Virus record (IMG/VR): IMGVR_UViG_2563366840_000013
Source of the DNA: a virus
Lineage: Duplodnaviria; Heunggongvirae; Uroviricota; Caudoviricetes
Strand: one strand, 5' to 3'
Length of the DNA: 3,729 nucleotides
The position numbers and the translations under genes were made by a program. The notes under the pieces were generated by a model that saw nothing but the letters and a program-made list of their open reading frames with translations, ran no database searches and had not been told where the DNA came from. Shown here in pieces: positions 1 through 3,729 of this stretch (position 1 is the first letter of the stretch; every line of letters begins with the position of its first letter).

Positions 1-201
1 GAAAACGCCCTTCGCAGCATTGCCCGTCAGGCTAATTCTGAAATCAAAAAAGCCAGACAGCAGTTTCCGGATAAAAACGTCGATGACATTTGCCGTAGCG
101 TACTGAAGAAGCACCGCGAAACGGTAACGCTGATGGGATTCACACCGACTCATTTAAGCCTGGCAATCGGCATGTTAAACGGCGTCTTTAAGGAACGATG
201 A
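1..201 (+). CDS. 3' end of an upstream CDS (partial, 66 codons, product not recognised)
   Basis: Frame 1 is open from the window edge to TGA at 199-201 (translation ...RETVTLMGFTPTHLSLAIGMLNGVFKER). Followed by a hairpin plus T-run. GC-typical composition. Confidence 0.5.
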   Translation, partial: ENALRSIARQANSEIKKARQQFPDKNVDDICRSVLKKHRETVTLMGFTPTHLSLAIGMLNGVFKER

Positions 202-221
202 ACATGAAAAGCAAAATTATC

Positions 222-247
222 AGGGAGCTACAGGCTCCTTTTTTATT
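222..247 (+). terminator. Intrinsic (rho-independent) terminator after the upstream CDS
   Basis: Stem GGAGC (224-228) pairs with GCTCC (234-238), loop TACAG, followed by TTTTTTATT. Lies about 20 nt after the TGA at 199-201. Confidence 0.6.
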
Positions 248-274
248 GCTCGCATTTACCCCCAAGCGTATTAA
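246..274 (+). promoter_or_regulatory. Candidate sigma70 promoter for the TraR-like operon
   Basis: TTGCTC (246-251) as -35, 17-nt spacer, TATTAA (269-274) as -10, about 25 nt upstream of the ATG at 300. Motif match only; not verified. Confidence 0.3.
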
Positions 275-299
275 CCAACAATTCAGGGATTAATGGAAG

Positions 300-521
300 A
301 TGGCAGACATCATTGATTCAGCATCAGAAATTGAAGAATTACAGCGCAACACAGCAATAAAAATGCGCCGCCTGAACCACCAGGCTGTATCTGCCACTCA
401 TTGTTGTGAGTGTGGCGATCCCATAGATGAGCTAAGACGCCTGGCCGTTCAGGGTTGTCGGACTTGTGCAAGTTGCCAGGAAGATCTGGAGCTTATCAGT
501 AAACAGAGAGGTTCGAAGTGA
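300..521 (+). CDS. TraR/DksA-family C4-type zinc-finger protein (73 aa)
   Basis: ORF of 73 aa with the C-terminal four-Cys motif CxxC...CxxC (HCCECGDPIDELRRLAVQGCRTCASCQ) typical of TraR/DksA-type RNAP secondary-channel regulators. Possible SD AGGGA at 285-289. Stop TGA at 519-521 overlaps the next start. Confidence 0.75.
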   Translation: MADIIDSASEIEELQRNTAIKMRRLNHQAVSATHCCECGDPIDELRRLAVQGCRTCASCQEDLELISKQRGSK

Positions 522-769
522 GCGTAATTCACTCTCAGGCACTGCGTGAAGCGGCAGAGCAGGCAATGCCTGACAACTGGGGATTTGACGCGGACCTTTT
601 CCATGAGCTGGTAACACCATCGATTGTGCTGACACTGCTGGATGAACGGGAAAGAAACCAGCAATACATCAAACGCCGCGACCAGGAGAACGAGGATATT
701 GCGCTAACGGTGGGGAAACTGCGTGTTGAGCTGGAGACAGCAAAAATCAAAACTCAACGAGCAGCGTGA
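518..769 (+). CDS. Hypothetical protein (83 aa), translationally coupled to the TraR-like gene
   Basis: GTG start at 518-520 overlaps the upstream stop (GTGA); SD GAGAGG at 506-511 with 6-nt spacing. Acidic, helical-looking translation, product not recognised. Frame stays open for 52 codons beyond the TGA at 767-769. Confidence 0.55.
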   Translation: MSVIHSQALREAAEQAMPDNWGFDADLFHELVTPSIVLTLLDERERNQQYIKRRDQENEDIALTVGKLRVELETAKIKTQRAA

Positions 770-931
770 GTAGAAGGTGTTATCTCGGATGGAAGTAAGC
801 GTATTGCTGAACTGGAGGCCTGGGTTGAATACACAAGAGCTGCATACGTAAGAGCAAAAGACAAGGGAGATTTGATCAGAGTTATTACCCGCCAACCAAC
901 GGGATTTTACGCTTACGTACCATGTAATTAG
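770..931 (+). other. In-frame open continuation of the 518-769 ORF past its TGA (52 codons to TAG 929-931), no credible own start
   Basis: Codons 770-928 are in the same frame as 518-769 and stop-free (VEGVISDGSKRIAELEAWVEYTRAAYVRAKDKGDLIRVITRQPTGFYAYVPCN). The only in-frame start-like codon is TTG at 872. Could be a gene remnant or a readthrough extension. Confidence 0.3.
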
Positions 932-1067
932 GAATCCTTGAAGTGGCAGCCTAACTGCGGATACACTGAAATGGCGATTTGGTAACATGTTTCGCACAAG
1001 GCTGTTACTACACTTAGAGATAATCAGCCATGATTAAACGCTTTGTAAAAAGTAAAAGGAAATTACA

Positions 1068-1682
1068 ATGAAAAAATCAATACTAATTTTAGGGCTTACG
1101 TTAATTGTCTCATCTCAAATACCATCGGCAATGGCAAAAAATGAATCAAAACTATGGGTTGTTGTTGATCGAACGGAAAGACATACCTGCCCTTCAAGTA
1201 AATGTGGAGTGGCTGGGAAACTATTTTTCAGGGAAGGCGTAGATTTTCTAGAAAAAAAAGGTGAATGGGTTCGTATAACTGAGCCATATTCAGCCTCATG
1301 TGTTGGAGGGGAAAGCGAATATATTAAAGAAGGTAATAAATCCTGCACAAGAAAAAATGGAATCGTTAATGGCAAGTTTTCAGAATGGGTTAAACTTAGT
1401 GATCTTAGCAGTGAAAGGCCATCAGATCCTGCTGAAAATGCGAGCGGAGATGATACTTTAATCAAAGGATCTGATGACTACCGTATATACAAAAAAGAGT
1501 TTTCTTCGGCAGCTAGGAAGTTAATAAATGAAGGGGTCTGCACGGAAAGCGATTTTAAGGAAATCGGAGGGTGGATGGCATCAAGCAATAAGGGTGAAAA
1601 CATCTATTTCACATATTGCGGAGGAATGACGTTGTCGAACAGAATATATCTAGACGTTAAAAGTGGAAAGACTTTTAGATAA
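1068..1682 (+). CDS. Secreted (signal-peptide) cysteine-rich protein with SH3b-like segment, AT-rich cargo gene (204 aa)
   Basis: N-terminus MKKSILILGLTLIVSSQIPSAMA has a basic n-region, hydrophobic core and AxA cleavage motif, with no lipobox. Mature part has 6 Cys. Segment RHTCPSSKCGVAGKLFFREGVDFLEKKGEWVRI resembles bacterial SH3 domains. SD AAGGA at 1056-1060, 7 nt before the ATG. Hand-counted GC of 60-nt lines is about 28-40 percent. Terminator downstream. Confidence 0.8.
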   Translation: MKKSILILGLTLIVSSQIPSAMAKNESKLWVVVDRTERHTCPSSKCGVAGKLFFREGVDFLEKKGEWVRITEPYSASCVGGESEYIKEGNKSCTRKNGIVNGKFSEWVKLSDLSSERPSDPAENASGDDTLIKGSDDYRIYKKEFSSAARKLINEGVCTESDFKEIGGWMASSNKGENIYFTYCGGMTLSNRIYLDVKSGKTFR

Positions 1683-1751
1683 TATGATATTACCAATGAC
1701 AGCATTAATTTAATGCCTCCATAGAATTATCTCCAGGAAGTAAGTATAAGA

Positions 1752-1790
1752 AAAGCCCGCACAATGAGCTGCTGCGGGCTTTGTGTTATT
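1752..1790 (+). terminator. Intrinsic terminator downstream of the secreted-protein gene
   Basis: GCCCGCA (1755-1761) pairs with TGCGGGC (1773-1779), extendable with flanking A/T pairs, 11-nt loop, followed by TTTGTGTTATT. Confidence 0.55.
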
Positions 1791-1975
1791 CGCCATATTT
1801 TATGAAGCAAATACGACACTATAGATAATTAAGCGTTACTGGTTGTCGATTCCTCACTCATTCCTGCTGATGGCTGTCTTCTTGTATGTGCCATTGAAGG
1901 GTAATATCGCGTAAAAAGATACCGGAAGTATCCGCGCCGCCATGATTGTCTTTCTCCTGATGCAGGAAAAGCAGA

Positions 1976-2095
1976 ATGACTAGATCAGCAGCAGAGCGCA
2001 AAGCCGATCAGAGAGCCAAGCAAGCATCATCCGGTATGCGTAAGCTGGAGCTTGTACTTGATGCTCAGGAAATTGAAATGCTGGAGCGTAACTGA
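1976..2095 (+). CDS. Small basic protein (39 aa), possibly the N-terminal part of a TGA-interrupted gene
   Basis: ATG at 1976 preceded by AGGAAAA (1964-1970); in-frame stop immediately upstream at 1958-1960. Translation MTRSAAERKADQRAKQASSGMRKLELVLDAQEIEMLERN. Ends at TGA 2093-2095, after which the same frame stays open to 2314. Confidence 0.45.
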   Translation: MTRSAAERKADQRAKQASSGMRKLELVLDAQEIEMLERN

Positions 2096-2314
2096 GCCAC
2101 GCGCCGCTTCAGGCGTGCGCCTTACGAGTTTGGTGAGTACATAGCATTACTGAGCCGCCAGGATGATGCACGTGTGCGCTGGCGTATAAAATCGATTAGC
2201 AGAAAACGTTGCCGTAAGTGCGGCGAGAGAGTTCCTGTTAATTCATGCCCGTGTAATGGTGACTCACAATACTGGGTGACCAAAGGCTGGCACGAAACAA
2301 AATTAATGATATAA
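2096..2314 (+). other. In-frame continuation after TGA encoding a zinc-ribbon-like segment (72 codons to TAA 2312-2314)
   Basis: Same frame as 1976-2095. Translation ATRRFRRAPYEFGEYIALLSRQDDARVRWRIKSISRKRCRKCGERVPVNSCPCNGDSQYWVTKGWHETKLMI has a CxxC-x9-CxC motif. No ATG in frame; a possible GTG start at 2174 with AGGA at 2160-2163. Confidence 0.35.
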
Positions 2315-2342
2315 ATCTCTGTGACATGTCACGGAGGCGGCA

Positions 2343-2771
2343 ATGAAATTAGACCAGCAATATCTAAAAGATCTACTTATCGCATTCGAAAAAACTCGTG
2401 GCCCTGACACGATGCTTAGTGAACTAGAGGATAATGGCTTTAATAGATATGACCAAGATTTTATTTTCCATATGCGATTATTATGTGACTACGAATTAAT
2501 AGTCAGGGTTGATGGAAAACCTGGGTTCGGTCATATAATGTCCAAAGCGTTAGGGGAAGGTGTTGGATATAGTTGGATCGAAGTACCACTGAGGTTGACA
2601 GCAAGAGGGCATGATTTTATTGCTGACTTACGTCAAAAGGATGTCTGGCAAGCTATAAAAACAAACTTTAAGGATGAGGGAATTAGTACACTTATGAGTG
2701 TTTCAAAATCACTAGCAAAAGGCTTTGCAAAGAAAAAGATAAAAGATATTACAGGAATAGATATTGAATAA
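2343..2771 (+). CDS. DUF2513-like small protein, AT-rich cargo gene (142 aa)
   Basis: Strong SD GGAGG at 2333-2337, 5 nt before the ATG. N-terminus MKLDQQYLKDLLIAFEK and the segment GHDFIADLRQKDVWQAIKTNFKDEGISTLMSVSKSLAKG resemble my recollection of the phage-associated DUF2513 family. Hand-counted GC about 32-40 percent. Terminator downstream. Confidence 0.75.
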   Translation: MKLDQQYLKDLLIAFEKTRGPDTMLSELEDNGFNRYDQDFIFHMRLLCDYELIVRVDGKPGFGHIMSKALGEGVGYSWIEVPLRLTARGHDFIADLRQKDVWQAIKTNFKDEGISTLMSVSKSLAKGFAKKKIKDITGIDIE

Positions 2772-2816
2772 TTCTTAGCATCAAGCAACTACTGCCTTTG
2801 GTGGAAATTATATCTG

Positions 2817-2842
2817 AACTCGCTACGGCGAGTTTTGTTTTA
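2817..2842 (+). terminator. Intrinsic terminator after the DUF2513-like gene
   Basis: AACTCGC (2817-2823) pairs with GCGAGTT (2828-2834), loop TACG, followed by TTTTGTTTTAT. Confidence 0.6.
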
Positions 2843-2854
2843 TGGAGATGATAA

Positions 2855-3022
2855 ATGCACTTCCGAGTCACAGGAGAATGGAATGGAGAGCCATTCAACA
2901 GAGTTATCGAAGCAGAGGACATCAATGACTGCTATAACCACTGGATGATATGGGCGCAGATAGCACATGCAGAAGTAACCAATATTCAAATTGAAGAACT
3001 GAAAGAACACCAAACCGCCTGA
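2855..3022 (+). CDS. Small hypothetical protein (55 aa)
   Basis: ATG at 2855 with SD GGAG at 2844-2847 (7-nt spacing); in-frame TAA immediately upstream (2852-2854). Translation MHFRVTGEWNGEPFNRVIEAEDINDCYNHWMIWAQIAHAEVTNIQIEELKEHQTA. Stop TGA 3020-3022 lies in the loop of the next terminator hairpin. Confidence 0.5.
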   Translation: MHFRVTGEWNGEPFNRVIEAEDINDCYNHWMIWAQIAHAEVTNIQIEELKEHQTA

Positions 3023-3037
3023 TGGCGGTTTTTTATT
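3012..3037 (+). terminator. Intrinsic terminator (8-bp perfect stem)
   Basis: AAACCGCC (3012-3019) pairs with GGCGGTTT (3024-3031), loop TGAT, T-run 3029-3034 then ATT. Confidence 0.7.
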
Positions 3038-3048
3038 GGAGACAAGAA

Positions 3049-3393
3049 ATGTCAGATTTGGCTATGAAGGTTTTGAAATGGCAATCGACTTGCGATGTCG
3101 GCATCAGTAGCGCAACTCTTGCCTCAATCGCATGTGGACTGAAAAAGAATATCTATGGTCATCACTTCGGCGCTCCACATGACGCAGCCGATTTCCGACG
3201 ATGCGTTGCACTTGTTGAGCAGATCCCAGAAATCAGGGATTCATTCGACAAGGTTGCAAAGCGCGTTCCGGCATTCAAAGGAATCCTCAACGAATGGGAT
3301 TCACTCGTTGCTCTGTTGAAGTCTGAAATGAAGACGTACGGGAACAAAGCACCAGAGACTTACAGAAGAATCAGCGAGCTACGCAAGGACTAA
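3049..3393 (+). CDS. Hypothetical protein (115 aa; start moved from the track's 3022 to ATG 3049)
   Basis: The track ORF 3022-3393 would begin inside the terminator hairpin. The in-frame ATG at 3049 has SD GGAG at 3038-3041 (7-nt spacing) and gives MSDLAMKVLKWQ.... GC-typical composition, product not recognised. Confidence 0.65.
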   Translation: MSDLAMKVLKWQSTCDVGISSATLASIACGLKKNIYGHHFGAPHDAADFRRCVALVEQIPEIRDSFDKVAKRVPAFKGILNEWDSLVALLKSEMKTYGNKAPETYRRISELRKD

Positions 3394-3462
3394 CCATAAA
3401 ATAACACCACCTCACACTCGATGAGGCCTGTTCATTGCTCAATGATATCCAGACCTACCATC

Positions 3463-3486
3463 GCCGCATCAATGCGGTTTTTTATT
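3463..3486 (+). terminator. Intrinsic terminator upstream of the AlpA-like gene
   Basis: CCGCA (3464-3468) pairs with TGCGG (3473-3477), loop TCAA, followed by TTTTTTATT. Shares the 14-nt string GCGGTTTTTTATTG with the terminator at 3012-3037. Confidence 0.55.
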
Positions 3487-3513: not shown

Positions 3514-3729
3514 TTGGAGATAGCACTCATGCAACACGAACTACAGCCTGATTCACTGGTTGATTTGAAATTCATCATGGCCGATACTGGCTTCGGTAAA
3601 ACCTTCATCTATGATCGGATTAAGTCCGGAGACCTTCCAAAAGCCAAAGTTATCCACGGGCGAGCAAGATGGTTATATCGTGACCATTGTGAATTCAAAA
3701 ATAAGCTCTTAAGCCGCGCCAATGGGTAA
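3514..3729 (+). CDS. alpA: AlpA-family (phage Vis/excisionase-like) HTH transcriptional regulator (71 aa)
   Basis: Translation LVDLKFIMADTGFGKTFIYDRIKSGDLPKAKVIHGRARWLYRDHCEF fits the AlpA/Vis pattern (L..V...TG.s..tIY..i..G.fP.p.K.g.r..W...d...w). SD GGAG 9 nt before the ATG. Complete ORF ending TAA at 3727-3729. Confidence 0.75.
   Translation: MEIALMQHELQPDSLVDLKFIMADTGFGKTFIYDRIKSGDLPKAKVIHGRARWLYRDHCEFKNKLLSRANG

Follow-up and report, generated by a model that had tools for sequence, protein, structure and literature searches.

The gene at positions 2343–2771 of the window, the whole stretch of 3,729 nucleotides analysed here, encodes a DUF2513 protein. It is real, intact, and under purifying selection, and it is mobile cargo at a variable, xis-proximal site of the exo–xis region. 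We give a probability of about one half to the reading in which its product is a small winged-helix regulator or adaptor, probably a dimer, that would be made early from pL.

The window covers the exo–xis part of a lambdoid prophage's early-left (pL) operon, where the first-pass annotation had spoken of an unspecified mobile element. Positions 1–3038 are 98.8% identical to Escherichia phage Chlobot, and many E. coli prophages are about 98% identical to the window. In Chlobot and the E. coli prophages the window genes lie downstream of N, ral, kil, gam, bet, exo, and homologues of orf60a/63/61, and upstream of xis and int, all in one orientation. Against phage lambda, blastn aligns only window positions 1–816 and 2807–3038 (95–96% identity). 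The former correspond to orf61, to orf73 (DksA/TraR-like), and to the beginning of ea22; the latter (lambda 29102–29333 region, 95% identity) correspond to the terminator after ea8.5 and to orf55. Thus positions 817–2806 replace what the lambda annotation gives as the C-terminal part of ea22 and as ea8.5. This segment is a composite of two AT-rich cargo genes and two gene remnants. Beyond it lies the orf55 homologue (phrog_676; 2855–3022, + strand), a conserved backbone gene whose product is 91% identical to the lambda orf55 protein.

Within the window ea22 is cut short at 518–816, with 83 open codons and an Ead/Ea22 Pfam match left; its lambda homology stops at 816, and the colinear copy in strain TL20 is frameshifted and partial according to PGAP. 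The other AT-rich cargo gene, at 1068–1682 (GC 0.38), encodes a 204-residue protein that matches phrog_8310 (E 1.8e-136) and carries an N-terminal signal-peptide-like segment of the secreted type; its SH3_3 match is weak. After orf55 come a 123-aa gene (phrog_1229; 3039–3473) and a TorI/AlpA-like excisionase gene (3514–3729). The xis-proximal end is also mosaic, since Chlobot has lambda xis in place of these two genes and strain TL20 lacks 3038–3473.

Transcription of the exo–xis genes from pL is early, and beyond a conserved orf60a–ea22 block the region has a variable gene set (PMC8614690). Lambda Ea8.5, a putative transcription factor, and gp05 of phage 24B, modelled as a winged helix with a C-terminal helical region (PMC8614690), occupy the same variable ea22–xis slot as the DUF2513 gene, with the same expected early expression from pL. 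The DUF2513 segment that replaces ea8.5 in the window is not homologous to it. Homology to 24B gp05, the other winged-helix protein of the slot, was considered and rejected; the two proteins have no sequence similarity (BLASTP E 0.46).

The DUF2513 gene itself (+ strand) is an ATG-initiated reading frame of 142 codons plus stop. The Shine–Dalgarno sequence GGAGG, read at 2333–2337 on the + strand, lies 5 nt 5′ of the ATG, and a spacer of 28 nt separates the gene from the end of the upstream reading frame at 2314. Its GC content, 0.361, compares with 0.483 in the lambda-like bases 1–816 and 0.496 in bases 1976–2314. The first-pass annotation had already described a strong Shine–Dalgarno sequence, a 28-nt gap, and a GC content well under that of the backbone, and was accurate on each. 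Compared with another E. coli allele, the gene has a dN/dS of 0.2; between genera dS is saturated and dN is 0.15–0.34. Of the 183 E. coli genomes with the gene, 168 keep the reading frame at full length, and the protein is kept end to end in 46 sequences, across genera and at identities down to 47%. Because of this retention of length, the end-to-end conservation, and a dN far below dS, the gene is regarded as working. It is intact where its upstream neighbours decay.

The cargo status of the gene is evident from its distribution. Of 5426 complete E. coli genomes, 2358 carry the orf55 backbone segment, at 3119 places, and 183 carry the DUF2513 gene, at 188 places. Among 444 phage records with some portion of the window in common, that of Chlobot alone contains most of it. 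The gene lies between ea22 and xis, is co-oriented with pL, and is found in only some relatives, as exo–xis cargo would be. An identical DUF2513 protein occurs in early regions of both the lambda type (exo/bet/gam) and the P22 type (erf/abc2). Homologues at 50–77% identity are also found in other variable slots. A Citrobacter homologue lies between replication genes and dinI/rusA/Q genes, in a nin-like slot; a Cronobacter homologue is directly 5′ of the small terminase gene; and in a Klebsiella phage and a metagenomic contig the homologue falls between the lysis cassette and terminase. In all, DUF2513 relatives use four different variable slots of temperate phages. Since the family match is present and the position is not fixed among relatives, the earlier description of an AT-rich cargo gene at a variable site holds.

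The protein is a plain member of Pfam DUF2513 (PF10711; E 7.5e-11, 42.7 bits against a curated gathering cut-off of 29.6) and of PHROG 585 (phrog_585; E 9e-35, residues 1–135 against profile positions 1–127 of 128). It belongs to the length class of about 135–142 residues, and members of these families occur, as it does, in phages and prophages. The Pfam alignment pairs residues 2–115 with profile positions 1–100 of 100, and the C-terminal 27 residues fall outside the profile. The resemblance to DUF2513 that had been noticed earlier is therefore genuine, but it spans the whole profile and not the C-terminal stretch to which it had been assigned. RefSeq names the identical protein "DUF2513 domain-containing protein". 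Homologues in Enterobacterales make up 99 clusters, and a profile search of 1.84 billion representatives gave 1471 clusters for the family, nearly all of them stand-alone proteins of about 130–145 residues.

DUF2513 and YjcQ (PF09639), a family of small winged-helix proteins from Bacillus prophage regions, are neighbouring families, since longer DUF2513 homologues also match YjcQ (P0112, E 5.5e-6; P0191, E 1.1e-3); the window protein itself has no YjcQ match at E ≤ 1. Both families consist of small, phage-associated proteins. The window protein likewise has no match at E ≤ 1 to the MarR, PadR, or HxlR families of Pfam. Neither single-sequence nor profile searches found a relative in the PDB, and no NCBIfam naming model was found for the protein. 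Its structural neighbours in BFVD are uncharacterised proteins (E ≥ 2e-3), with no characterised viral protein among them. A literature search on DUF2513 and PF10711 returned no paper.

A confident AlphaFold2 model (pLDDT 93.4, pTM 0.84; 46-sequence alignment) predicts an N-terminal winged helix-turn-helix followed by three helices. Helices are modelled at residues 5–16, 25–30, and 38–49, a four-strand wing region at 53–85, and the C-terminal helices at 87–97, 99–108, and 114–137. The model has the three-helix bundle and β-hairpin wing of the MarR/PadR-like winged helix-turn-helix fold, and the folds closest to it are those of MarR, PadR, HxlR, and TubR, as well as the DNA-binding domain of CggR. 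Tyr7, Leu12, His43 in helix 3, Arg84, Thr86, and Gly89 are nearly invariant across 98 representatives. The last three form an RLTxxG turn, which is typical of MarR/PadR-type winged helices.

The likeness to MarR, PadR, and HxlR regulators is one of fold and not of sequence family. Unlike the DNA-binding domains of those regulators, the winged-helix part of the DUF2513 protein has an acidic pI of about 5 (the family median is 4.85). No cognate operator was found. The recognition helix has few basic residues, and the C-terminal helix at 114–137 is basic and amphipathic. It is by its resemblance in fold that the protein might be expected to dimerize and to bind DNA.

Upstream of the DUF2513 gene lies a phrog_536 "transcriptional regulator" pseudogene of 112 codons (1976–2314, + strand), the TGA-interrupted gene of the first-pass annotation; the reading frame that ends at 2314 is its second half. 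Its in-frame TGA is at 2093–2095, and PGAP reports an internal stop. The 112-residue product, labelled a transcriptional regulator in PHROGs, has a C-terminal zinc-ribbon-like Cys cluster. In the window and in strain 97.3, TGT has become TGA at codon 40, which is TGT (Cys) in the intact Chlobot gene; strain TL20 carries an independent TGC-to-TGA change at codon 79, likewise a Cys codon (L003 10210–10212). Intact copies of phrog_536 are found in phage Chlobot, Cronobacter, and some P22-type prophages. Selenocysteine recoding of the window's TGA was rejected, as shuffles do at least as well as the hairpin that follows it, and it was rejected also for the second TGA in TL20, where there is no structure at all. 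With no SECIS-like structure, the TGA alleles are therefore plain pseudogenes. Such pseudogenes are possibly a sign that phrog_536 is counter-selected in its present context.

The gene phrog_536, or its 3′ remnant, stands 5′ of every close (at least 60% identical) DUF2513 gene, and the spacer there is likewise 28 nt. Apart from phrog_536 in this close subfamily, clustering of neighbours across 44 loci gave no conserved neighbour gene. There is no obligate pairing of the two genes, because phrog_536 is far commoner without DUF2513 than with it, and DUF2513 persists where phrog_536 is dead. Farther upstream, at 1836–1943 (+ strand), is the remnant of an S24 peptidase (UmuD/HumD-like) gene, colinear with a PGAP "DNA repair protein, partial" in TL20 and weakly matched at the DNA level by plasmid HumD genes. 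Related P22-type prophages have at this site a 151-residue reading frame with a Peptidase_S24 match over its first 82 residues (L052 7356–7811); it runs on into the phrog_536 reading region and is C-terminally truncated according to PGAP.

The DUF2513 gene was said earlier to have its own terminator. An intrinsic-terminator-like hairpin with a T-rich tail is indeed found 3′ of the gene (2816–2845, hairpin 2816–2835, + strand). Lambda homology begins at 2807, however, and the lambda counterpart of this hairpin stands after ea8.5. Lying in the part shared with lambda, it is backbone flank and not demonstrably the gene's own. The terminator scan found no convincing terminator between the upstream reading frame and the DUF2513 gene: its lone match in that stretch, at 2030–2049, is inside the reading frame and has a poor T tail. 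The earlier statement that no terminator separates the genes is thus borne out, and the co-transcription proposed with it is plausible. After the 204-residue cargo gene a hairpin is followed by UUUGUGUUAUU (1752–1782, + strand; fold −19.3 kcal/mol, z −2.55). This is likely a terminator, at which transcripts that are not antiterminated would end before they reach the DUF2513 gene.

A weak promoter candidate can be read at 2287–2315 (+ strand). It consists of a −35-like CTGGCA (2287–2292), a 17-nt spacer, and an extended −10-like TGaTATAAA (2307–2315) that lacks the conserved T at −7. The promoter scan reported no + strand promoter in the window, at this candidate or elsewhere. The TGATATAAA block is kept 5′ of the Enterobacter and Citrobacter homologues, where the upstream gene has been lost. 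Judged by its sequence, the candidate may serve as a promoter. A predicted 8-bp hairpin at 2317–2336, formed by a palindrome described below, partly pairs the Shine–Dalgarno sequence; it is not significant against shuffles. Since the scan gave no promoter and hairpin terminators stand on both sides, little DUF2513 transcription is expected in a repressed lysogen. Of the features of a moron, the gene has a terminator directly 3′, one common to lambda, and a composition unlike that of its flanks (GC 0.36 vs 0.48). For a lysogen promoter of its own there is the weak candidate at 2287–2315 alone; the promoter-like element of a related subfamily is much better.

In the mechanism that we propose, the DUF2513 gene would be transcribed in the early-left pL operon after infection or induction, and N-modified RNA polymerase would read through the hairpin terminators to reach it. 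Expression in the repressed lysogen, if any, would come from the weak promoter just upstream. The protein, built like PadR or MarR, would tune phage or host gene expression early in development by binding either to nucleic acid or to a protein partner; it would not act as an enzyme. A regulator or adaptor role has been proposed for other exo–xis proteins as well. An acidic winged helix with few basic residues in its recognition helix is unusual for a sequence-specific DNA binder, and this speaks against the regulator reading.

The boundary between the phrog_536 pseudogene and the DUF2513 gene is occupied by a 14-nt motif, TGTGACATGTCACG (2320–2333), which contains a perfect 12-bp palindrome (2321–2332) and is present once in the window against an expectation of 0.01. 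In at least 80 loci of viral contigs the motif follows terminator hairpins or comes directly after phrog_536 stop codons, and it is found also after phrog_536 genes with other downstream cargo or with none. One left flank is joined to four to six different right flanks, and vice versa. There are also "empty" versions, in which a terminator comes directly after the motif. Some phages hold two copies, and phage Chlobot holds one. Further sites are at L066 3335–3348 and 5786–5799, L008 2241–2254, L189 about 5979–5990, and in L068–L147. The palindrome was considered as an auto-operator specific to DUF2513. This was rejected, as only 3 of the 80 motif-bearing viral loci have DUF2513 and 23 of the 80 have phrog_536, and the single copy in Chlobot speaks against it too; no plausible operator specific to the DUF2513 gene was found, and the palindrome travels with phrog_536. 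TGTGACATGTCACG could be a phrog_536 binding site, an RNA hairpin, or a recombination linker.

A second element, GGCATTACAGCAGGCATTCACTGAGTGCCTGTGATAATG, is nearly invariant over about 40 nt 5′ of a sister DUF2513 subfamily. In it, an imperfect inverted repeat precedes TGtGATAAT, which is extended −10-like. At least 45 further cassette genes in phage contigs, small and unrelated, have the element at their head too, in some cases as a tandem with two copies within 350–960 nt. Sites are found in L011, L018, and L188 (just upstream of position 6001), and in L196–L273. The element looks like a portable promoter of a hypervariable cassette region. Together, TGTGACATGTCACG and GGCATTACAGCAGGCATTCACTGAGTGCCTGTGATAATG mark cassette boundaries in enterobacterial temperate phages. 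No Rfam family was found in the window or at either junction element, and a literature search on the two motifs found no paper. The cassettes behind the junction elements encode HNH endonucleases, DNA polymerase III theta, a Lar-like protein, small lipoproteins, and many unknowns. They are assorted small accessory genes, and Pfam and PHROG scans revealed nothing among them that looks like a known defence system.

Several observations bear on a role in conflict between phage and host. For the DUF2513 protein, 0 families of PADLOC-DB v2 matched at E ≤ 1, and identity with a known defence system was rejected on this basis; three other window proteins had no PADLOC match either. In two metagenomic proteins, P0129 and P0238 (profile E 2e-30 and 2.6e-17), a DUF2513 domain is fused N-terminally to a TIR domain of the CAP12/Pycsar type or of the TIR_2 type. 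These have a C-terminal TIR effector domain where the window protein has three short helices, and they come from short metagenomic contigs of unrelated taxa. TIR fusions are rare, with 3 among the top 150 family members, one of them weak. The set of DUF2513 fusions (P0129, P0238, P0197; L065, L317) includes also a weak fusion to DUF4062. Such architectures suggest that effector proteins can employ the DUF2513 domain as a module for sensing or for DNA binding.

Three distant homologues (26–33% identity) adjoin type I restriction-modification genes (L026 1228–6363, L027 6001–11961, and L032 3229–6372). In L026 the DUF2513 gene is fourth in a same-strand row with hsdM, a probable but unannotated hsdS, and hsdR. 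The TIR fusions and the restriction-modification loci are hints of conflict-related roles. A general association with defence islands was rejected, as the neighbours of distant homologues are mixed: type I restriction-modification genes (3 loci), phage genes, housekeeping genes, and CDI toxin genes.

The first-pass annotation had offered phage exclusion and regulation as candidate functions, and of these two guesses regulation is the better, since it fits the winged-helix fold. If the gene by itself encoded a superinfection-exclusion or defence protein, a weak promoter of its own would drive expression in the lysogen; the protein's winged helix would sense an incoming phage component, and it would act through the basic, amphipathic C-terminal helix or through a host partner. 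Such a protein would account for AT-rich cargo with a terminator 3′ and a weak extended −10-like element upstream, and for a helix at 114–137 that is basic and amphipathic. It would agree also with the DUF2513–TIR fusions (P0129 and P0238), with the three distant homologues beside type I restriction-modification genes, and with the 47–50%-identical subfamily that lies between a conserved promoter-like element and terminators, as classic morons do. Nevertheless we judge exclusion quite improbable. There is no PADLOC match at E ≤ 1, the scan gave no + strand promoter, and the candidate −10 lacks the T at −7, so that no canonical lysogen promoter was found. Moreover, every close relative is embedded in, and co-oriented with, an early operon, Pfam and PHROG scans showed no known defence gene among the alternative cassettes of equivalent slots, and there is no conserved partner gene. 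It is also unlikely, in our estimate, that the protein is an early protein-binding factor for host takeover or anti-defence, whose acidic winged helix would neutralize a host protein, or would poison the DUF2513 sensors of TIR effectors by mixed oligomerization, in either case without binding DNA. The acidic N-terminal domain, an early pL location next to ral, gam, or anti-RecBCD genes, the domain shared with the TIR fusion proteins, and one distant homologue adjoining a gene with a Pfam "Sequestin" match are all consistent with such a factor. It is opposed by the conserved MarR/PadR-like wing motif, which argues for nucleic-acid binding, by the lack of similarity to any characterised anti-defence protein, and by the rarity of the TIR fusions (3 of the top 150, one weak) and their occurrence in unrelated metagenomic taxa.

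The gene might instead be a functionless hitch-hiker, a decaying passenger in prophage junk like its neighbours. Immediately 5′ of it an S24 peptidase gene is truncated and phrog_536 is interrupted by a nonsense codon, which gives this notion some colour, as does strain 97.3, whose 100%-identical DUF2513 copy lies in a degraded prophage remnant. Yet a passenger of this kind would hardly keep a full-length reading frame in 168 of 183 E. coli genomes, end-to-end conservation to 47% identity across genera, a dN far below dS, and 1471 representative clusters in its family. The selection signal has largely refuted the idea already, and we find it scarcely credible. A broader proposal joins the junction elements to the conflict-related hints. 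It holds that the DUF2513 gene is an interchangeable cassette of an undescribed exchange scheme among enterobacterial temperate phages, with boundaries formed by TGTGACATGTCACG and, for the sister subfamily, by GGCATTACAGCAGGCATTCACTGAGTGCCTGTGATAATG, and that its stand-alone winged helix would be the sensor half of DUF2513–TIR defence proteins, acting as an exclusion or counter-defence factor. We regard this combination as very unlikely to hold in full.

Public databases already annotate the DUF2513 protein, and the exo–xis slot has been described in print as variable; the novelty of the gene and its setting is therefore low. The family nevertheless offers a clean test case, a widespread and strongly conserved phage winged-helix family in at least four variable slots. 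A phenotype in lysogenization, induction, or phage exclusion would assign a function to a large DUF, and would add a player to the exo–xis region, which influences the induction of Shiga-toxin prophages. The two junction elements may matter more, for how small accessory genes shuffle among enterobacterial phages.
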